This document shows positions 1 through 9,504 of a stretch of DNA of 24,000 nt, in pieces (positions within the stretch are counted from its first letter, which is position 1; each line of letters starts with the position of its first letter). The stretch is taken from contig JAYWAB010000196.1 of assembly GCA_043782835.1 (NCBI GenBank), forward strand, positions 2,019-26,018, read 5' to 3'. A program made the translations under genes and the position numbers. The stretch is from Aestuariivirga sp. GTDB lineage: Bacteria; Pseudomonadota; Alphaproteobacteria; Rhizobiales; Aestuariivirgaceae. The notes below the pieces were generated by a model. That model was not told the origin of the DNA, ran no database searches, and was given only the letters and a program-made list of their open reading frames with translations.

Positions 1-1215
1 TTTGTGAACCGAAAAAATGAAGTTGACCGTCGTGTCTTTGAACTTCTTTCTGAAAAATTCAAGCTATTCGAAGGTGTGTTTGGTGCCAGCGATGAGGTAT
101 TGGGCGCAATTGAGTCGGGCGTAGATTTTGAGAAGCGTATCAATGGCATTTACCAAAAGTGCCGCCAGCCCGATGAAATCAAGCTGGCATTTGATCAATT
201 GCAACTCGAGCTCAATCTCGAGATTAGCGCAGCGATGAATGAGACAAATCGTAAGCTGCTGGAAAATTTTGATGACGAGGTGCGCGATAAACTCAAAGTT
301 CGCGATGCGGATGCGAAAGTCTATCTTGATCGGTTCGAAAAGACATTGATGCGGATCACGCAACACGAACTTTCTGACCATGCAAATTTTATGAATGGTG
401 CGACCTTTAAATTGGAGTCACACCCGTCATGGACGCTGCCCACCCACGTCCCTCTTGGGCTTTACGAACTCCCACGCAGAACGGGCGAAGCACATTTCTA
501 CCGATTGACACACCCCTTAGGAGAGGCCGTCGTTTCGCGCGCCAAAGTCAGACAGCTCGAACCAGCGGAAGTCATTTTTGACTACAATGCCTATGAGGGC
601 ACGGTCGCAATACTCAAACCTTATGTAGGGCAGTCTGGGTGGATTGTTTGTACTCAGCTAAGTGTCGAGGCGCTAGACACTTCAGAAGATCACCTCTTAT
701 TGGTGGGCAGACAAGACTCTGCGCACGGTGGCGTTGACCTCCCGCCTGCTGTGATTGCCCGCATGTTGTCTCTTCCTGCAAAATCAGGAGCAAGTTGGAG
801 TTCTGCCGATGAAATTGAGAGCGATGCCCAACAACAGCTGAATAAGGCACAAGCAACTATTCAGGGCGAAATATCTGAGCGTAATGCGGCCTTCTTCTCG
901 ACCGAGGCTGACAAGCTGGATGGATGGGCGGATGATCTCAAGGTAGGTCTAGAGCGCGAAATCAAGGAAGTTGACCGGCTGATCAAAGAAGCGCGCAGAG
1001 CTGCAACAACAGCATTGAGCTTGGAGCAAAAGCTCGACATGCAGAAAAAAATAAAGGCGCTGGAAGCAACAAGGAACACCAAACGACGCAATCTATTTGA
1101 CGCTCAGGATGAAATCGAGAAGCAAAGGGCGGACTTGATTGCAAAGATTGAGGGCAAGCTTGAACAGCGAGTCGAAGTCAGCAAGTTATTTTCAATCCGA
1201 TGGAGGGTTCAGTGA
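1..1215 (+). CDS. C-terminal ~400 aa of a large SNF2/helicase-family protein (5' end outside window)
   Basis: The frame is open from nt 1, so the GTG at 4 is probably internal. The segment VDRRVFELLSEKFKLFEGVFGASDEVLGAIESGVDFEKRI, followed by a long charged coiled-coil tail (LEREIKEVDRLIKEARRAA...DAQDEIEKQRADLIAKIE), matches my recollection of the region after the helicase-C domain in bacterial SNF2-type helicases found beside mod/res genes. No ATPase motifs fall inside the window, so the family call is by recollection only. Confidence 0.55.
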   Translation, partial: FVNRKNEVDRRVFELLSEKFKLFEGVFGASDEVLGAIESGVDFEKRINGIYQKCRQPDEIKLAFDQLQLELNLEISAAMNETNRKLLENFDDEVRDKLKVRDADAKVYLDRFEKTLMRITQHELSDHANFMNGATFKLESHPSWTLPTHVPLGLYELPRRTGEAHFYRLTHPLGEAVVSRAKVRQLEPAEVIFDYNAYEGTVAILKPYVGQSGWIVCTQLSVEALDTSEDHLLLVGRQDSAHGGVDLPPAVIARMLSLPAKSGASWSSADEIESDAQQQLNKAQATIQGEISERNAAFFSTEADKLDGWADDLKVGLEREIKEVDRLIKEARRAATTALSLEQKLDMQKKIKALEATRNTKRRNLFDAQDEIEKQRADLIAKIEGKLEQRVEVSKLFSIRWRVQ

Positions 1216-1400
1216 CAAAATCTGGCAACACGCCATCACAATTGTTGGCGCAGAAATTTGCAGAAAAACTTGCGGCGAGTGGGCTAGTTCGAAAGGAAAA
1301 TCAGGACAAACTGGCTGAAAAAATTGCTGAAGGAAAGATGGCGATGGCCGACTGGCGACTTGAAATTGAACTGGCAGCAGGTGTTGGAGGTGCTAAATGA
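1200..1400 (+). CDS. small hypothetical protein (62-66 aa), helical/charged
   Basis: The ORF overlaps the upstream stop (1213-1215). Its stop overlaps the next ATG (ATGA at 1397-1400). The in-frame GTG at 1212 is preceded by GGAGGG (1202-1207) and forms a GTGA overlap with the upstream stop, so 1212 may be the true start. No recognisable domain. Confidence 0.45.
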   Translation: MEGSVTKSGNTPSQLLAQKFAEKLAASGLVRKENQDKLAEKIAEGKMAMADWRLEIELAAGVGGAK

Positions 1401-2545
1401 ATGCACCTGTGTCACTAAAAGCACTGACACTGAAATCCTTTCGCGGTTCCACGGCGACATTCAAGCTGGCCTTCGAGAAGGATCGAAAGCTCACTCTCGT
1501 TTATGGTGAGAATGGCTGCGGCAAAACCACAATCTGCGACGCATTTGAATTGCTGGCAGTGGAAAAAATTGGTTCTCTCGAAAACAAGGGAATGGGAGCT
1601 GGACTCGACAAGTACTGGCCTTCGGCTGGGCAGAAGCCGGAAGACCTAGAGATTCTTTTGGAAACTACAGCGGGCCACTGCGCTGGTCGCTTCGTCAACA
1701 AGAAGCTCACAATAAATCCTGCAAACGGCAAGCCGAAAATTGAGCTGCTGCGTCGCAAGCAAATTCTTGACCTGATTGAAGCACAGCCGAACAAGCGTTA
1801 CGAAGCGATAAAGGCGTTTATCGACATCGATCTGTTTGAGCAGTCGGAGAAAACGCTCCGAGAACTCGCAAAAAGCCTACCCGATGACAGCAAACGCGCC
1901 AAGGAACGGGAAGGTGAAAGTCTGACGACACTTGCTGGGTTTTTTGATGCTGCCGGCAAGCCTTCGGGCCACAATCCGGTATCGTGGGCAAAAGAATTGC
2001 TAAAGGCGACTGCGGAACAGTATGCGGCAGACATCGCAACAATAAAGAAGTTGTCCAGTCTTTTTGACGATCTTGAAAAGCTGCGGCAGCGAATTTCTGA
2101 CAGTTCACAAGAGGCATTCCAGTGCGCCGCTCAGCTGAAGGATGCCGAGACAGCCGTCGAAATTGCATTGGAAGCCTCCAAAGGTACTGGTGACGGCGAG
2201 TTGCTGGCACTGTTCGATGCGGGTCGCCACTACCTTGAAAAGCATCCTGATCATTCTGCATGTCCGTTGTGTGATAGTGCGGAGAAAATTGGGGGCCTAT
2301 TAGACCGCATTCAGTCAGGTTTGGGTTTGCTTGCCGAAGTCAATAAGGCAACCCAAACGCGGAGAGGTGCTCAGACCAAAGTCGATCAGGCGAACACGCT
2401 GTCCAACGGTGTGCAACTTGAATTTGCCAAGAAGCGGGTACAACGCTCAATAAGGCATTCGCCTCGCACAAGCGAATTCCAGAAAAGGTCCTTAAGAAAG
2501 AATTGGGCGATGAATATGAAGCTGAAATATCAGGCTTTGTTCTAG
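1397..2545 (+). CDS. SMC/Rad50-like (AAA_13/15/23-type) ATPase, N-terminal half only; apparently truncated or frameshifted
   Basis: GGAGG at 1386-1390 lies before the ATG at 1397. The N-terminus LKALTLKSFRGSTATF...LTLVYGENGCGKTTICDAFELL carries a Walker A motif (nt 1505-1531). A long alanine/charged helical region follows, then a CPLC motif (nt 2261-2272) resembling a Rad50/RloC zinc hook. No Walker B, ABC signature or D-loop follows. The last ~35 codons (RVQRSIRHSPRTSEFQKRSLRKNWAMNMKLKYQALF) look like out-of-frame sequence. Confidence 0.6.
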   Translation: MNAPVSLKALTLKSFRGSTATFKLAFEKDRKLTLVYGENGCGKTTICDAFELLAVEKIGSLENKGMGAGLDKYWPSAGQKPEDLEILLETTAGHCAGRFVNKKLTINPANGKPKIELLRRKQILDLIEAQPNKRYEAIKAFIDIDLFEQSEKTLRELAKSLPDDSKRAKEREGESLTTLAGFFDAAGKPSGHNPVSWAKELLKATAEQYAADIATIKKLSSLFDDLEKLRQRISDSSQEAFQCAAQLKDAETAVEIALEASKGTGDGELLALFDAGRHYLEKHPDHSACPLCDSAEKIGGLLDRIQSGLGLLAEVNKATQTRRGAQTKVDQANTLSNGVQLEFAKKRVQRSIRHSPRTSEFQKRSLRKNWAMNMKLKYQALF

Positions 2546-3561
2546 AAAACGCGAAGTCTGTGATTCAGCTCGCTAGACCAGACTACAACGCCGTTAGTGC
2601 TGCTGCCCGACTGGTCATTGATGAATCTCGAAAGCGCCCCACAGAAATACTCAAGCTTGAGAGGCTTGGACTTTCTGACATGTTATTCTTGGGGGGCCAG
2701 CGAATTCTGTTCTACTCAGACAAACTCAAGCTTGTTGACGGCGAATATGTTGCAGGAGAACCGTTGACTAGTATCTGGGAAGATATTCTTTCCAATAACT
2801 TACACAACGAAGGTGGCATGGAGTTTCCAAAAGGAAAGAAGCCAGAAGCGTTGATAAAACGTTGCATGGAACTTTCCACCGAAAAAGGTGACCTTATTCT
2901 AGATTCATTTGGCGGTTCTGGCACCACAGGCGCAGTTGCCCATAAGATGGGCCGTCGTTGGGTTATGGTGGAATTGGGTGAGCATTGCCATACGCACATC
3001 ATACCGCGCCTGAAAAAAGTGATTGATGGTGTCGACAAGGGTGGCGTGACCGAAGCCACGGACTGGAAGGGCGGTGGCGGCTTCCGCTATTTCAAGCTTG
3101 CACCGTCATTGCTGGAGAGGGATCGGTTTGGCCGAGACGTAATCAGCAAGGACTATAATGCCGCCATGCTCGCCGAGGCCATGTGCAAGCTGGAAGGTTT
3201 CACCTATCAACCCAGCGACACTCTCTATTGGAATCAAGGTTTTTCCTCCGAGCGGGATTTCATTTACGTCACCACGCAAACGCTTTCTGCTGATCAATTG
3301 GCTGATTTGAGCGAAGAAGTGGGCAGCGAACGTTCACTTCTGGTTTTGTGTTCTGCCTTTCGAGGCCATGTAAATTCGTGGCCCAATCTCACGGTTAAGA
3401 AGATACCTAACTCCGTTCGTAACAAATGCGAATGGGGCCATGATGACTATAGTTTGAATGTGCAAAACCTGCCGCAAGCGCCCGAAGTACCAACCGAAAC
3501 GCTCTCATCCAAACGCGCCGCACCCAATCAGGACGACCTGTTCACTGACGGTGCGATATGA
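2503..3561 (+). CDS. Type III Mod-like (beta-class N6/N4) DNA methyltransferase, C-terminal portion only (lacks DPPY/NPPY motif IV half); likely pseudogene or fusion remnant
   Basis: Contains FPKGKKPEALIKRCMELSTEKGDLILDSFGGSGTTGAVAHKMGRRWVMVELGE, which includes AdoMet-binding motif I (nt 2903-2932), plus a conserved-looking C-terminal domain (GGGGFRYFKLAPSLLERD...). No (D/N)PPY motif occurs in this ORF or in any frame of 1397-2900 that I could see. The only starts are the TTG at 2503 or the ATG at 2680, and neither has a clear SD. The stop overlaps the res ATG (ATGA at 3558-3561). Confidence 0.65.
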   Translation: MGDEYEAEISGFVLENAKSVIQLARPDYNAVSAAARLVIDESRKRPTEILKLERLGLSDMLFLGGQRILFYSDKLKLVDGEYVAGEPLTSIWEDILSNNLHNEGGMEFPKGKKPEALIKRCMELSTEKGDLILDSFGGSGTTGAVAHKMGRRWVMVELGEHCHTHIIPRLKKVIDGVDKGGVTEATDWKGGGGFRYFKLAPSLLERDRFGRDVISKDYNAAMLAEAMCKLEGFTYQPSDTLYWNQGFSSERDFIYVTTQTLSADQLADLSEEVGSERSLLVLCSAFRGHVNSWPNLTVKKIPNSVRNKCEWGHDDYSLNVQNLPQAPEVPTETLSSKRAAPNQDDLFTDGAI

Positions 3562-6215
3562 CTGAGCGCATCGCCAATGGCATCGCCGGACGCTTGAGCC
3601 TGCGCCCACCGCAGCAACAATCCCTCGATATTCTTCAGCGCATCACCGAGATTGCTCCGCCGCAAAAAAACATCGACATTGACGCGGCATTGGCCGCCAT
3701 CGCCAAAGAATATCCCAGCGTTACCAGCTTTGAGCGCGAATTCCTTTCGCTCTGCTTTGCCTTGGCCACAGGTGTTGGCAAGACACGGTTGATGGGCGCA
3801 TTCATTGCTTACCTCCACAATGCCCACGGCTTTCGCAACTTCTTCGTGCTGGCCCCAAATCTGACGATCTATGGCAAGCTGATTGGCGACTTCACGCAGA
3901 ACAACCCGAAATATGTTCTGAAGGGTATCCAGGAATTTGCCATTTCGCCGCCTGTGATCACCACGGGCGACAACTTCGAACGCCATCTTGCCAGCGGTGG
4001 CAGCTTGTTCCCGACCACAATCAACATCTTCAACATTTCCAAGATCAATTCCGAAGTGCGCGGCGGGCGTTCACCCAAAATGCGCAGCTTCCGAGAGGAA
4101 ATTGGCGAAAGCTATTTCGATTATCTGGCAGGGCTTGATGACCTTGTGTTGATCATGGACGAGTCTCATCGCTATCGCGCTTCTGCCGGTATCCGCGCCA
4201 TCAATGAGCTTAAGCCCGTGCTGGGACTGGAACTGACAGCCACGCCATTTGTGGAATCCACTAGAGGGCCAATGCCTTTCCAAAATGTGATTTATGATTA
4301 TCCATTGCGTCGCGCCATGGAAGACGGATTTGTGAAGGAACCAGCCGTTGTCACCCGCGAAAATTTCGTGAGCATTGGCAAGTCGCCGGAGACTATTCAA
4401 GAGATCAAGCTGCAAGACGGCGTTCGCCTGCATGAAAGTGTGAAGGTGGAGCTTGAAACCTATGCCCGCAATTCGGGTGAGCGGATCGTCAAGCCCTTCA
4501 TGCTGATTATCGCTCGAGACACAACTCACGCCGCTGAACTTCTTGCCATCATCAAGAGCAAGGATTTCTTCGAAGGCCGCTATGCCGAAAAGGTAATCCA
4601 AGTCGATTCAACGACCAAGGAAGAGGAAACGATTGAGCGGCTACTCAAAGTCGAACACTCGGACGAGCCAACGGAAATCGTTATCCATGTGAACATGCTA
4701 AAAGAAGGTTGGGATGTGACCAACCTCTACACCATCGTTCCCTTGCGTGCCGCCAATGCGCGGACGTTGATTGAACAGTCCATTGGGCGCGGCCTTCGCC
4801 TGCCTTATGGCAAGCGCACAGGCGTCGAGGCCGTAGACACATTGAGTATCGTGGCCCATGACCGCTTTCAGGAGATTGTGGACGAAGCGCGGAAGCCCGA
4901 CTCCATCATACAAATGAAGACGATCATCCTGAAGGATGACGCAGCGGCAGAAAATCCGACGACTGTTGTTTCCAATCCGAAACTGTTGGATGATTTTGGA
5001 CTGGGGACAGAAAGTTCTCACGGTTCACTCCAAGAAGGTTCAACGCCACCAATCTTCAATCTCGAAGAACAAAAAATCGCGCAGTTGGCCTATGAGGAAA
5101 TCCGTAAGCTTGAAACGCTGCCCAGCTCCAGAGAGTTGAGCAATCCGGAACAACAGGCAAAGATCATAGAAGCTGTGCAAAGCCGCTGGCAGGTTCCGCA
5201 GTTGGAACTGGATGGCATCGTGACTAAGCCTGATTTCTCACGGATTGTAGCGAGATCAGTTGAGCTTGTGCAGAGACAGACAATTGATATTCCGCGCATT
5301 CTAGTCGTGCCACGCGGCGAAGTGAAGGCGGGCTTCAAGCCGTTCAAGTTGGATTTGCGCGGGTTGAATTACGAAGTCCCAGATCAAACGCTGCTTTCAC
5401 AAACCTTGCGGACAGGTGAAATCAGCAGGATCAGTTCAACGGTTGGCAACGTCAACGAAACGCGTCTCGAAGATTTCATCGTAAGTGGCCTGATAGACTT
5501 CGATGATGTGGCCTATGATGAACATGCCGAGCTTCTCTATGAACTCGCCGGTCAAGTCACAAGCCACTTTGTTTCTCGGCATACTGAAAGCGGCGCACGC
5601 AAGATTCTACAAGTCTATCGCAAGGAAATTTCCAAATTTGTCCACGCGCAGATGCAACAGCATTATCTTGCCGATGGAAGTGTCGAATATGATGTGAAAG
5701 TGTCGCGAGGCTTCACGGCGCTCAAGCAAAGTGCATACACCGCGAATGTCGGAGATACGTTAGATTTCCGAACCTCACCGACCGATAAGAGCAACATGGC
5801 GCGGTATGTCTTTTCAGGATTTAAAAAGTGCCTTTATGACTTCCAGAAATTCCAGTCTGATGCCGAGCGAAGGCTTGCCATCATTCTCGACCGTGAAACT
5901 GAGAAGTGGTTCAAGCCCGCCAAGGATCAATTCCAGCTCTACTATCGGCGCGGAATGGATGACATTCCGTACCAGCCGGATTTTGTCGCCGAATCAAAGT
6001 CGGGCATATCCATGTTGGAACCAAAGTCGACGGCAGAGCTGGATGATCTGGAAGCCAGGGCGAAAAAAGACGTGGCAATGACATGGTGCGGCCACGCCTC
6101 TGCTCATGCAAAATCGCATGGTGGGAAGGCTTGGACCTATGCGGTTATTCCTCACAATGTCATCGCGGAAAACATGACACTGGACGGGCTGGTGAAGGCC
6201 TATTCTACAGTTTGA
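3558..6215 (+). CDS. res: Type III restriction endonuclease Res-like subunit (SF2 DEAD/DEAH helicase plus C-terminal PD-(D/E)xK nuclease)
   Basis: 885 aa. Motif I is ALATGVGKTR (nt 3771-3785). Motif II is LIMDESHR (DESH at nt 4158-4169). A late helicase motif reads EGWDVTNLYTIVPLR...QSIGRGLR. The C-terminal YQPDFVAE...MLEPK (nt 5976-6026) fits a PD...ExK nuclease core. The gene is translationally coupled to the upstream mod fragment. Confidence 0.85.
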   Translation: MTERIANGIAGRLSLRPPQQQSLDILQRITEIAPPQKNIDIDAALAAIAKEYPSVTSFEREFLSLCFALATGVGKTRLMGAFIAYLHNAHGFRNFFVLAPNLTIYGKLIGDFTQNNPKYVLKGIQEFAISPPVITTGDNFERHLASGGSLFPTTINIFNISKINSEVRGGRSPKMRSFREEIGESYFDYLAGLDDLVLIMDESHRYRASAGIRAINELKPVLGLELTATPFVESTRGPMPFQNVIYDYPLRRAMEDGFVKEPAVVTRENFVSIGKSPETIQEIKLQDGVRLHESVKVELETYARNSGERIVKPFMLIIARDTTHAAELLAIIKSKDFFEGRYAEKVIQVDSTTKEEETIERLLKVEHSDEPTEIVIHVNMLKEGWDVTNLYTIVPLRAANARTLIEQSIGRGLRLPYGKRTGVEAVDTLSIVAHDRFQEIVDEARKPDSIIQMKTIILKDDAAAENPTTVVSNPKLLDDFGLGTESSHGSLQEGSTPPIFNLEEQKIAQLAYEEIRKLETLPSSRELSNPEQQAKIIEAVQSRWQVPQLELDGIVTKPDFSRIVARSVELVQRQTIDIPRILVVPRGEVKAGFKPFKLDLRGLNYEVPDQTLLSQTLRTGEISRISSTVGNVNETRLEDFIVSGLIDFDDVAYDEHAELLYELAGQVTSHFVSRHTESGARKILQVYRKEISKFVHAQMQQHYLADGSVEYDVKVSRGFTALKQSAYTANVGDTLDFRTSPTDKSNMARYVFSGFKKCLYDFQKFQSDAERRLAIILDRETEKWFKPAKDQFQLYYRRGMDDIPYQPDFVAESKSGISMLEPKSTAELDDLEARAKKDVAMTWCGHASAHAKSHGGKAWTYAVIPHNVIAENMTLDGLVKAYSTV

Positions 6216-6277
6216 CATTGTATTGATTGGTACATGCACAAAAGGGGGAAGTGGTTACTTCAATTCTGCCATGCCAC

Positions 6278-6568
6278 CTAGTTGCTGCCAGATAGGTGTT
6301 TCCGCACTCGCCGCCATTTGCCCTGCTCGTAGGTGTCAGACCGATACCACGCATTCTGTTCCTCAGTGAATGCCGCCTCCGCCGGATCGGCCGGATGGCT
6401 TCGCCTCAGTTCACCTGCCAATCGTTCAATCTCGACCTTGGGTATGAGCAGTGGCCGAATGTAAAGTTCATTGAGGAACCAAATGAGAGTTCCCCAGATT
6501 GGGGCAGTGCAAATGACAACTAAACCCCACCACCAATCGTGCCAACCCATGTGCTGTATTCCCTGCAT
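6278..6568 (-). CDS. small hypothetical membrane protein (one predicted TM helix)
   Basis: 96 aa. A Trp-rich hydrophobic segment, WHDWWWGLVVICTAPIWGTLIWFL, is followed by a charged tail. The gene is divergent from the XRE gene. No recognisable domain. An alternative start at Met7 is possible. Confidence 0.4.
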   Translation of the reverse strand: MQGIQHMGWHDWWWGLVVICTAPIWGTLIWFLNELYIRPLLIPKVEIERLAGELRRSHPADPAEAAFTEEQNAWYRSDTYEQGKWRRVRKHLSGSN

Positions 6569-6586
6569 TATCTGAATTTAAGATAA
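6568..6586. repeat. inverted repeat TTATCT-N7-AGATAA in the divergent intergenic region; possible operator
   Basis: Perfect 6-bp arms (6568-6573 and 6581-6586). The repeat abuts the start codon of the minus-strand ORF and lies 47 nt upstream of the XRE start. Its function is inferred only. Confidence 0.3.
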
Positions 6587-6632
6587 GCTGAAAATCAGAT
6601 TACCGAAAGCCCATTGATCAGGCGGGCATTAG

Positions 6633-6872
6633 GTGAACAAGACACTGGGTTCAAAACGGCACGTGGCGCTCATCGCGTTTCTGAAAGACAGGCGAAAGGC
6701 GGCTGGCTTGTCACAAGAAGAGCTGGCAGAGCACATGGGAGAGTATCAGTCATTCGTGGCGCGCATGGAAAGCGGTCAGCGGCGAGTGGACGTGGTGGAG
6801 TTCATTGCCCTCGCAGAGGTCTTGAATTTTAATGCCGCAAAGGCCTTGGCGAATATCGCCAAGGCCGAATAG
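6633..6872 (+). CDS. XRE/Cro-C1 family helix-turn-helix transcriptional regulator
   Basis: 79 aa with a GTG start. LKDRRKAAGLSQEELAEHMGEYQSFVARMESGQRRVDVVEFIALAEVL is a typical HTH_3 pattern (GLSQxELA...ESGxR). Confidence 0.75.
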   Translation: MNKTLGSKRHVALIAFLKDRRKAAGLSQEELAEHMGEYQSFVARMESGQRRVDVVEFIALAEVLNFNAAKALANIAKAE

Positions 6873-6970
6873 TGAAAGTCAGTTGCGGCCGGGGACCTTG
6901 CACGGAGGCAAATGTGCTTAAGGCTCTGCCAGCCGCGCTATACTGGGTCGCTTCATGACCTCAGAGGCAG

Positions 6971-7402
6971 TCAGGCTCGGGCGCTAAAAACCCGCACGCG
7001 CGATACTGCGTCAAGTTGCTTGTACAGATAAAACAGACACTGGCGATAGTTGAACGTCACAGTAGTTTCTTCGCCTTCGTCGTCGATATACTCCGCAGCG
7101 AATGTCCTCCCACCATATCCCACTCGGATGACCCGAAAACAACTAGGGTTTCGGTGAACCGAAAACATCATGCGCTGCACTGACGCGTTGTAAAGTGCCA
7201 ACATGGTTTCGCGACTTGGGTCATCTTCGTATGCCTCCAGTCCGTCACCAGCAAACCGGCGATCTTCATCGAGTTCAAGCAAGAAGCTGGCGAATGTATC
7301 GTCAGCGCCATCAAAACAATCGAAGCTCAGTTCTCCGATAAATAAGTCATCTTCATTCGGGTCATCTTCAGCGAAATTACTTTCAATAAAATTTTCTTCC
7401 AT
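6971..7402 (-). CDS. hypothetical protein with extremely acidic N-terminal half
   Basis: 143 aa. ATG at 7402-7400 with the purine-rich SD region AAGGTAAGAAGGTAAG upstream on the minus strand. The N-terminal ~75 aa are rich in D/E (MEENFIESNFAEDDPNEDDLFIGELSFDCFDGADD...LELDEDRRF...EAYEDD). The gene is divergent from the integrase. Confidence 0.5.
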   Translation of the reverse strand: MEENFIESNFAEDDPNEDDLFIGELSFDCFDGADDTFASFLLELDEDRRFAGDGLEAYEDDPSRETMLALYNASVQRMMFSVHRNPSCFRVIRVGYGGRTFAAEYIDDEGEETTVTFNYRQCLFYLYKQLDAVSRVRVFSARA

Positions 7403-7634
7403 GCTGCTTACCTTCTTACCTTACTGTTGAGTGAGCCGATCCGCTTGGACGTGCTTGCGTCACAACGTCGACAGACACATCGTACTTTCATGCGCCACGC
7501 TGGCGCAAGTTTGGACAGCAGCACGCATCGCAGAATTCAATGCCAAACGAGGACATATGATCCGTGGACTGATGAATATGCTTTCTTTTGGATGCAGTGC
7601 AGTTATTTCGAGTGTCGAAAGGGAGCCTTGAGCC

Positions 7635-8819
7635 ATGCCAACACTGCGACTGATAAAATCGATCATCGATAAGATTCCACTCACGGACAGCGGCCAGTGC
7701 CTGTACCGCGACACTGATCTGACCGGATTTGGACTCTGCGTGGGCACACGCAGAAAGACATATTTCGTTGAAGGGCGTCTTAACAACCGCCGTGTCCGTC
7801 AGGCTTACGGGCAATACCCGTTGATGACCGTGGAACAAGCGCGGAGCGAAGCCATGGGCAGGCTTGCTTCGCTGATGCAGGGCATCAACCCCGAAGCCGC
7901 CAATAGAGCCAAGAAGGCGCGGGACATGACATTAGGCGAGGCTTTTGCCGCTTATTTTGAGGCGAAGCCAAATCTGGCCGCGCCGACGATGGACAACTAT
8001 CAACGCTCGCGTGACCTTTATCTAAAAGATTGGCTGAAGTTGTCACTGCGCGAAATCACACGCGACTTGGTGTTAGCGAAGCACCGTCAGATTGGCAGGG
8101 ATCATGGCGGTATAACCGGCAACAACGCGATGAGGCACTTTCGGGCTGTCTTCAATTTTGTGGGCTCGCTCCACGATGAATACCCACCGTGCCCTACGGT
8201 TGTCCTGACCAGAACGCGGTCATGGGTGCCACAGCACCGTCGTCGAACTTTGGTTGCCGCTCACCAGTTACCCGCGTGGTGGCGCGCGGTGATGGCTGAG
8301 GAACCTCACGCGAGAGATTTTTTGTTAGTGGCGATTTTCACAGGTATGAGGCGCAACGAAATTTCTAAATTGAAGTGGGAACATATCGACCTTGTAGGTA
8401 AAACGTTGAACATTCCGCGCACAAAAAATGGTGACCCGCTTGAACTGCCATTGTCTGAATTTCTCTGCGGCGTAATCGCGCGACGTCGTGAATTGGTTGG
8501 CCAATGCGAATACGTGTTTCCCGGACCGGGAGCCACAAAACACATCGTCGAGACGAAGCGGTTCCTGAGCCGCGTTGTGTGGAATTCGGGCGTGAAGTTT
8601 ACTCTGCACGATTTGCGCAGGAGTTTTATCACAATCGCTGAGTCACTGGATATTTCAACCTACGGATTGAAACGCTTGCTGAACCACAGGGCTGACAACG
8701 ATGTAACGGCTGGCTACATTGTGATCGGGGCTGAGAGACTGCGTGGGCCCGTGGAACGTATAGCTGCACAGATATTGGAGTTAGCCAATGCCCAAGAAAA
8801 AGCCCCAATCGGAACTTGA
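7635..8819 (+). CDS. int: tyrosine recombinase / phage-type integrase (P4-like, N-terminal DUF4102 arm-binding domain)
   Basis: 394 aa. GGGAG lies upstream of the ATG. The N-terminus LYRDTDLTGFGLCVGTRRKTYFVEGRLNNRRVRQAYGQYPLMTVEQARSEA is DUF4102-like. The catalytic pattern is FTGMRRNEISKLKW (R), TLHDLRRSF (HxxR), LLNHR (H) and VTAGYI (Y). Confidence 0.9.
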   Translation: MPTLRLIKSIIDKIPLTDSGQCLYRDTDLTGFGLCVGTRRKTYFVEGRLNNRRVRQAYGQYPLMTVEQARSEAMGRLASLMQGINPEAANRAKKARDMTLGEAFAAYFEAKPNLAAPTMDNYQRSRDLYLKDWLKLSLREITRDLVLAKHRQIGRDHGGITGNNAMRHFRAVFNFVGSLHDEYPPCPTVVLTRTRSWVPQHRRRTLVAAHQLPAWWRAVMAEEPHARDFLLVAIFTGMRRNEISKLKWEHIDLVGKTLNIPRTKNGDPLELPLSEFLCGVIARRRELVGQCEYVFPGPGATKHIVETKRFLSRVVWNSGVKFTLHDLRRSFITIAESLDISTYGLKRLLNHRADNDVTAGYIVIGAERLRGPVERIAAQILELANAQEKAPIGT

Positions 8820-9504
8820 TGACATTGTACCACAACACCTTTTGGATAGTGCGGCAAAATTCGCCAATGTGAATTTTGGTGTCCACCTTGAAGAAGCAAA
8901 TGTGGGAGATGAGAATCTACAGGCAGCAGGTGTCTCAAGGTCGGTTTTGGAAACAGTCCTCCTCGCAATTATTCAAGGTCACCCCGATCCGAAAGACCAA
9001 CAGCGCACCGATCTAAGCCGATTAAAGTGCGCCGTCGAGGCGCTAACAAGTCGCGAGGCTGCTTGGACACCGTGGATGGACCCTGAGCGTCGGTATATTG
9101 AAATGGCGTTACAGATAGCACAACGGCACGGTAAGCTGCGAGAAGTCATGAGTGTTGGAACGCGTCACGGCAGCAAGAAGGACAAATTCACGCCGTATGT
9201 TCGTTTGGCAAAGGAACAAATAGACAAAAAGAAAATCGAGGAGTTCACAGTTGCTGATGAAGAGAACGTGAAGAACATTGCTGCGAAATTTTCTGGAAAA
9301 TACTATACTAAGCAAGCAGCGCTGAAGAATGACTTAAATCCCAAGAACGCATATCATAACTCCAACTTTCCTGAGATTTGGCATCGCATCACAATGCGAC
9401 ACGATTTTTTGGCTGAAAGTCTCGAATTGCAAACGGCGGATCGTATTTTGCGGGAGTTTGGCAATTGGGGACTGAACTACAAAATTCGACTACCATGGGA
9501 CTAG
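8788..9504 (+). CDS. hypothetical protein
   Basis: 238 aa. GGAG at 8777-8780 lies 7 nt before the ATG. The ORF overlaps the integrase 3' end by 32 nt. No domain recognised. Confidence 0.5.
   Translation: MPKKKPQSELDDIVPQHLLDSAAKFANVNFGVHLEEANVGDENLQAAGVSRSVLETVLLAIIQGHPDPKDQQRTDLSRLKCAVEALTSREAAWTPWMDPERRYIEMALQIAQRHGKLREVMSVGTRHGSKKDKFTPYVRLAKEQIDKKKIEEFTVADEENVKNIAAKFSGKYYTKQAALKNDLNPKNAYHNSNFPEIWHRITMRHDFLAESLELQTADRILREFGNWGLNYKIRLPWD

Follow-up and report, generated by a model that had tools for sequence, protein, structure and literature searches.

How does an ATPase gene that breaks off halfway come to run into a methyltransferase gene that begins halfway, directly beside an intact restriction gene? 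This question is raised by a stretch of 24,000 nucleotides (nt) of contig JAYWAB010000196.1, from the Aestuariivirga sp. assembly GCA_043782835.1, called here the window, to which all coordinates refer unless another contig is named. In it, an open reading frame (ORF) encoding part of an ATP-binding cassette (ABC) ATPase meets part of the modification methyltransferase (Mod) of a type III restriction-modification (R-M) system, and the restriction subunit (Res) follows. An earlier inspection made without database searches, referred to below as the sequence-only reading, proposed a deletion, an assembly or frameshift error, or a genuine fusion protein. What it said of the sequence itself proved correct throughout. 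Very probably, a single illegitimate (non-homologous) deletion of about 3.8 kb, in a multi-gene defence operon carried by an integrative island, left the junction as its scar. The locus is a case of ordinary gene decay, or pseudogenisation, and not a new fusion protein; as such it is not surprising. The elements that meet at the junction are the following.

1397..2438, plus strand: the first 347 codons and one further base of a Rad50/SMC-like zinc-hook ABC ATPase, left as a remnant
2438..2439, plus strand: deletion junction, where base 1 of ATPase codon 348 is joined to base 3 of Mod codon 212
2439..2545, plus strand: wrong-frame tail of the ATPase ORF (35 R/K/S-rich residues, then a TAG stop)
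2439..3561, plus strand: what is left of a type III Mod (residues 213-585, comprising motif I, the C-terminal domain and a portion of the central region)

The ATPase ORF (1397-2545) encodes 382 amino acids (aa). As the sequence-only reading had observed, it has a Walker A motif (GENGCGKTT, nt 1502-1528), a coiled coil and a CxxC hook (CPLC, nt 2261-2272), and lacks a signature motif and Walker B. Walker A and the hook both align with invariant columns of the family, and the first coiled-coil arm, the hook and the start of the second arm are kept. The ORF matches only the N-terminal parts of the ABC ATPase models AAA_23, SMC_N, LmuB and PbeC. When it was aligned with full-length relatives, no signature motif, Walker B or H-loop was found in it; in the relatives these elements (YFSxSHLDTLG for the signature motif, LVLDDVLGSVDEPH for Walker B and the D-loop, and TTHY for the H-loop) lie at about residues 502-567. 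When the 382-aa ORF was compared by HMMER with 1.84 billion representatives, 115 relatives had E values below 1e-30; the complete ones cluster at 765-790 aa, and none matches the query beyond about residue 346-350. A profile search added more than 100 further members of 770-773 aa. A family that naturally ends near 380 aa, for which the sequence-only reading had left room, is thus not what was found: its members measure about 772 aa and consist of a head N-lobe, a coiled coil, the CPLC hook, a return coiled coil, the signature motif, Walker B, the H-loop and a C-terminal domain of about 175 aa. In the window, homology to this family ends at about residue 347, and the last 35 residues of the ORF come from Mod coding sequence translated out of frame. 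The mismatch between the two frames accounts for both the R/K/S-rich tail, previously described as degeneration, and the stop codon at 2543-2545.

The closest full-length ATPase, P0380 (773 aa, on contig L027), shares 86% aa identity over residues 1-346. In its predicted structure, two long helices lie beside the hook (residues 209-260 and 301-354; predicted local distance difference test score, pLDDT, of 80), and the matches to the whole model in Foldseek were confined to Rad50/SMC proteins, the best of them with an E value of 2e-11. When 400 genomes from the same class were searched for the ATPase, matches came from the window's own genome only. In a Walker A pattern search of genome contigs, at least four loci were among the matches listed, all of them weak.

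On the other side of the junction, the Mod frame is open from a TGA at 2419-2421, that is, from 2422 to 3561. The sequence-only reading had judged its upstream translation to be protein-like, and this proved correct: from nt 2440 the translation (TTLNKAFASHKRIPEK...) is genuine Mod sequence. It shares 96% identity with residues 213-584 of P0391, an intact Mod of 585 aa in whose 90% cluster the window fragment also falls. A second intact Mod, P0002, is 85% identical, again from residue 213. Motif I, which binds S-adenosylmethionine (FxGxG, here FGGSG at nt 2908-2922), and the C-terminal domain are kept, as had been noted. The matches to general models are partial, covering only positions 224-560 of 575 in the PADLOC profile MTase_III (PDLC03636) and only 134-217 of 221 in Pfam N6_N4_Mtase (PF01555). 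Almost all of the best 120 Mod homologues measure 575-605 aa, and they cover 90-99% of the 379-aa open frame. The family does not naturally lack an N-terminal DPPY domain: P0391, P0002 and P0003 have DPPF at residue 75. A scan of nt 1-3600 for [DNS]PP[YFWH] found no such motif in coding-length frames, in agreement with the sequence-only reading, and the sole hit was a minus-strand SPPF in an open stretch of 64 aa. In all, 373 homologous Mod codons remain, and the full-length start of the gene is absent. The first available start codon, a TTG at 2503 without a good Shine-Dalgarno sequence, would give a protein of 352 aa.

The gene for P0002 is itself an orphan, full-length mod (L010:1354-4264), flanked by two transposase pieces of the IS1595 insertion sequence (IS) family. 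The upstream piece has 243 aa (Zn-ribbon and DDE) and the downstream one 142 aa (DDE), and there are start/stop overlaps. This arrangement, without res, is present on contigs from at least six runs.

Two relatives on Joint Genome Institute (JGI) contigs allow the break to be located. Their gene orders are as follows.

L027 (JGI contig): SNF2 helicase of 954 aa, 62-aa gene, ATPase of 773 aa, AIPR protein of 615 aa, first 34 codons of Mod
L033 (JGI contig of 63.7 kb), first part: SNF2 helicase of 954 aa, 61-aa gene, ATPase of 771 aa, HD protein of 491 aa, 173-aa gene
L033, rest: Mod of 585 aa (P0391), Res of 885 aa, helix-turn-helix (HTH) gene, integrase of 394 aa, 238-aa ORF

A further contig, L034, is a second copy of L033 from another run. 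With blastn, window 1-2438 aligns to L027 2066-4503 without gaps (86.7% identity) and the alignment ends at 2438, while window 2439-6814 aligns to L033 8379-12756 (89.8%) and the alignment begins exactly at 2439. Over positions 2399-2438, identity is 72% to L027 and 20% to L033; over 2439-2478, it is 23% to L027 and 97% to L033. These alignments place the junction at 2438|2439. The first option of the sequence-only reading, a deletion that took the C-terminal half of the ATPase and the N-terminal half of Mod, is strongly supported in this way, and the break can be assigned to a nucleotide. Compared with the L027 layout, 3,760 nt are missing (4,159 nt compared with that of L033), and by the L027 layout 426 ATPase codons and 212 Mod codons were lost. 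To judge from gene order, a whole AIPR/AbiU gene was probably lost between the two halves as well, a component that had previously gone unnoticed.

At most 1 nt is shared at the join, and no repeat or mobile element is found there. A repeat-mediated deletion was considered and rejected. The only nearby exact repeat, an 11-nt direct repeat (TCAATAAGGCA) at 2340-2350 in the ATPase part and 2447-2457 in the Mod part, straddles the junction with both copies kept, and it is at chance level, about 0.7 exact 11-mer pairs being expected by chance in 2.4 kb. A GCGG common to both parent proxies, 1-2 nt from the join, would yield a product 1 nt too long and was not interpreted.

Under the second option, the junction would be an artefact, either a chimera made in assembly or a frameshift made in sequencing, and the cell would have both genes complete and separate. 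The genome is metagenome-assembled and fragmented (268 contigs, 84% complete), which favours such an artefact, as does the shared starting point of two Logan contigs from different runs, L019 and L020, at window 2318, some 120 nt to the left of the junction. However, the 382-aa ATPase and 352-aa Mod fragments are present on contigs of five assemblies from different runs, produced by different assemblers (one 74-kb ENA k141 contig and four Logan run contigs), and none of the five differs from the window at any shared base (100% identity), junction included. Because there is no repeat at the join, reads containing it must underlie these assemblies; with at most 1 nt in common, a de Bruijn assembler needs such reads to cross. 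In addition, the error would have to account for more than 3.7 kb and not for one base, and ATPase residues 350-773, an AIPR homologue and Mod residues 1-209 are absent elsewhere in the 84%-complete assembly. For this last reason, a rearrangement in place of a loss was also rejected. The agreement among the assembled sequences indicates that the junction is real DNA and not a misassembly, and an artefact of either kind is highly improbable.

As for position 2318, it adjoins an imperfect 14-nt inverted repeat (2319-2332 / 2345-2358) and may be a strain-variant branch point or a drop in coverage.

Given that the left part of the window is nearest to L027 and the right part nearest to L033, the join could also stem from illegitimate recombination between two copies or alleles of the island, one L027-like on the left and one L033-like on the right. 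The outcome, two truncated genes, would be the same. Such an origin would fit the mosaic nature of the operon: between L027 and L033, the SNF2 genes are 94.7% and the Mod starts 96.8% identical, whereas the ATPases are only about 44% identical and the embedded genes differ. However, L027 ends 102 nt into Mod, so that the right part of the window is not comparable with it, and the window SNF2 lies at about the same distance from either relative (91% and 87%). One deletion within the locus explains everything in a single event, and a join between two alleles is considered unlikely.

According to the deletion model, the ancestral operon would have had the order SNF2, a protein of about 62 aa, a Rad50-like zinc-hook ATPase of about 772 aa, an embedded effector, type III Mod and type III Res. 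Judging by the closest relative, the effector would have been of the AIPR/AbiU type. The deletion extends from ATPase codon 348 to Mod codon 212. Removed from the ATPase are the second arm of the coiled coil, the signature motif, Walker B, the H-loop and the C-terminal domain with Rx5H, and from Mod the N-terminal part, which carries the DPPF catalytic motif; the entire embedded gene would have gone with them. As the join is out of frame, the ATPase ORF continues for 35 codons into Mod and stops there, and the Mod remnant is left without a proper start.

The C-terminal domain of the full-length ATPases can be described from P0380 (about residues 600-773; L027:5244-5780). Residues R707, N708, G711 and H713 (Rx5H) are invariant, as is the tail GWP...KSGSYW...RR.HPLK.P, and the domain is predicted to form a helical bundle with a beta-hairpin. 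When it was modelled by itself (pLDDT 64), the best Foldseek hit, the helical-bundle protein 1wwp_A (probability 0.93, E 0.31), was not significant. Neither search identified this domain as HEPN: the whole model recovered only Rad50/SMC proteins and the domain-only model nothing significant.

The catalytic domain of a beta-class methyltransferase is formed from its N- and C-terminal segments together. Because both parts are needed, a Mod fragment without motif IV is expected to have lost methylation. Type III Res acts only in complex with Mod, EcoP15I being a Mod2Res1 complex (PMC4490356), and for this reason restriction should be lost too, leaving a harmless orphan Res. No other homologue of the window Mod turned up in the assembly, which leaves Res without an evident replacement partner there. 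The ATPase cassette is presumably dead, as the remnant has only half of the nucleotide-binding head and no longer has the putative effector domain.

Conversely, the arrangement might be functional, either through a -1 frameshift within 2422-2545 that would yield an ATPase-Mod fusion of about 720 aa, or through remnants that work as separate proteins, such as a non-methylating Mod fragment that still partners Res. The geometry described in the sequence-only reading is correct: the ATPase is in frame 2 (1397) and Mod in frame 1 (2422), the two frames overlap by 124 nt and a -1 shift would join them. There are no stops or frameshifts over 346 and 373 codons, the ratio of nonsynonymous to synonymous substitution rates (dN/dS) is low, and both Res and SNF2 are intact. 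However, the overlap (2422-2545, ATPase frame) contains no X_XXY_YYZ heptamer, no ATPase-Mod fusion occurs among the family hits, and the arrangement is seen in one lineage only. With different frames and no slippery site, a fusion protein is not to be expected, and the third option of the sequence-only reading is not supported. Neither catalytic domain is complete, since the ATPase is without Walker B and the signature motif and Mod without motif IV, and the low dN/dS is explained by divergence gathered before a recent deletion. A working arrangement of either form is therefore very unlikely. The same small likelihood is given to the idea that the remnants are kept for a purpose, whether as a Mod fragment that docks to Res and SNF2, an ATPase decoy or regulator, or a fusion made by unconventional frameshifting. 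If it were true, the Mod fragment docked to Res and SNF2 could be a modification-independent nuclease, and the headless N-terminal half of the ATPase, with its zinc hook, could serve as the decoy or regulator.

Several points weigh against a single recent deletion with loss of function. No intact allele more than 97% identical was found, and two scans of metagenome contigs for a near-identical intact allele returned none; a minority intact allele may be present in the same samples. The left parent is represented only by an 87%-identical proxy (72% over the last 40 nt), and because it is known only by this proxy, the microhomology and the exact length of the deletion are estimates. Loss of function is deduced from domain content only, and stop-free remnants, which fit a recent event, would fit retained function too.

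Apart from the two remnants, three genes of the operon remain.

1..1215, plus strand: SNF2/DrmD-like helicase, C-terminal 404 codons (of an intact 954 aa); the gene starts at contig position 369, upstream of the window
1212..1400, plus strand: conserved gene of about 62 aa, with an alternative start ATG at 1200
3558..6215, plus strand: type III Res, intact, 885 aa, whose ATGA start overlaps the Mod stop

In the first 6.2 kb, there are five overlapping genes on the plus strand, all in one orientation; downstream of Res are an HTH gene, a tyrosine integrase and then more island genes. The SNF2 helicase matches PADLOC DrmD (1.9e-33) and, on the full ORF, Pfam SNF2-rel_dom and Helicase_C. Its length of 954 aa is equal in L027, L033 and L016, and the part in the window has a dN/dS of 0.04-0.06 against relatives. 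The gene of about 62 aa has start/stop overlaps with both neighbours and, in an alignment with four orthologues, 18 invariant columns. In the relatives it always lies between SNF2 and the zinc-hook ATPase, and a family search with it gave no match. Res matches PADLOC REase_III at 2.4e-194 (profile 2-861 of 871). It is full length, with superfamily 2 (SF2) helicase motifs and a C-terminal PD-(D/E)xK nuclease motif, and ATGVGKT, MDESHR, QSIGRGLR and PDF...EPK are invariant against three orthologues. Its length of 885 aa is the same in L033, against which its dN/dS is 0.048.

The remnants themselves are little altered. The 373 codons of Mod (dN/dS 0.10) have no stops or frameshifts, nor do 346 codons of the ATPase. 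Because the remnants are free of stops, the Res motifs are kept and dN/dS is low, the comparison suggests that the deletion is young compared with the divergence from L033 (dS about 0.25-0.5). Res and SNF2 would then be still intact only because of this recency.

The relatives also show the kind of operon from which the locus may derive. The order SNF2, protein of about 61 aa, zinc-hook ATPase, AIPR, Mod and Res is found on a 1.78-Mb ENA contig (L029) and in Caulobacter sp. Root487D2Y (L030), where the operons adjoin integrase, relaxase or TraD genes. In both of these, as in L027, it is the AIPR protein (Pfam AIPR, 2.8e-31; PADLOC AbiU, 1.9e-33) that lies between ATPase and Mod. Other cargo occupies the corresponding place elsewhere. 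In L033 and L034, whose island backbone in L033 is the same as that of the window, it comprises a divergent ATPase, the 491-aa HD protein and a 173-aa DarG-C-like protein (L033:3178-7665), and in G009, a genome of the same genus, a 297-aa protein and an ASCH protein (L008:6010-7335). From these comparisons, the SNF2...Mod-Res backbone is seen to carry interchangeable cargo cassettes. Between L027 and L033, the type of ATPase co-varies with the downstream effector despite flanking SNF2 and Mod sequences that are 95-97% identical.

Downstream of Res, window 6278-9504 and L033:12216-15368 have a common backbone with 85-90% nt identity. The shared module consists of a small minus-strand ORF, a 79-aa HTH gene, a minus-strand ORF, the 394-aa integrase and an overlapping 238-aa ORF. 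Because this backbone is common to both, the defence operon travels with the integrase module.

A comparable pair is found at L021:7803-11851, where a 5'-truncated Mod, with homology from residue 137, stands beside an intact Res of 896 aa, amid rve, IS21 and Mutator-type transposase genes. This is an independent second case of the same state of decay, reached by a different route. A hot spot for breakage in Mod was considered and rejected, the truncation beginning at residue 137 and not at 213. The sequence-only reading had described an intact Res beside a gutted mod as noteworthy. The description holds now that the motifs have been checked; the emphasis was overstated, since an orphan Res is harmless, the state is an expected transient one and L021 offers a parallel.

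With regard to annotation, both ORFs should be recorded as pseudogene fragments and not as 'AAA ATPase' and 'site-specific DNA-methyltransferase', and counts of working type III systems should leave the locus out. It offers a clean, nucleotide-resolved example of the 'safe' loss of a composite defence operon, in which one deletion would jointly remove the catalytic part of Mod, an embedded abortive-infection gene and the effector end of an RloC-like ATPase, leaving a harmless orphan Res and a SNF2 helicase. The interchangeable cargo on the SNF2...Mod-Res backbone may hold wider interest than the scar itself.

Among known systems, the type III R-M systems EcoP15I and EcoP1I (Mod2Res1; PMC4490356, PMC3413136) share several features with the locus: mod precedes res with stop and start overlapping, Res has SF2 helicase motifs and a C-terminal PD-(D/E)xK, and the intact relatives of the window Mod are beta-class N6-adenine methyltransferases (PF01555) in which DPPF lies towards the N-terminus and FxGxG towards the C-terminus. 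In contrast, the window Mod is without residues 1-212, motif IV included, so that the pair is not a working system, and the operon has two features absent from classical type III systems, a SNF2 helicase upstream and embedded cargo.

The full-length relatives of the ATPase also resemble the zinc-hook anticodon nuclease RloC (PMC2610378, PMC3458546) in having an ABC head split by a coiled coil, a CxxC hook and a C-terminal domain of about 175 aa, in their length (about 772 aa; RloC range 658-897 aa) and in their linkage to an R-M locus. However, Pfam AAA_13 covers no more of the window ATPase family than the P-loop. RloC has a C-terminal ACNase/HEPN domain with a catalytic Arg-Glu-His triad, to which the domain of the relatives, with its invariant Rx5H, is at most a putative counterpart. 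The window copy has lost the entire C-terminal region.

Linkage of AbiU1/AIPR to type III R-M has been described (PMC3506569), and the AIPR or other cargo between ATPase and Mod in the relatives is similar to 'embedded' defence genes (bioRxiv 10.1101/2024.01.29.577857). The window differs from these in that it retains no embedded effector, and an AIPR gene in its ancestor is suggested by the closest ATPase relative only. Finally, the locus can be compared with R-M systems pseudogenised by deletion or IS elements. Its break is unlike these in being clean, with at most 1 nt of microhomology and no mobile element; like them, as exemplified by L021, it shows a 5'-truncated mod beside an intact res.

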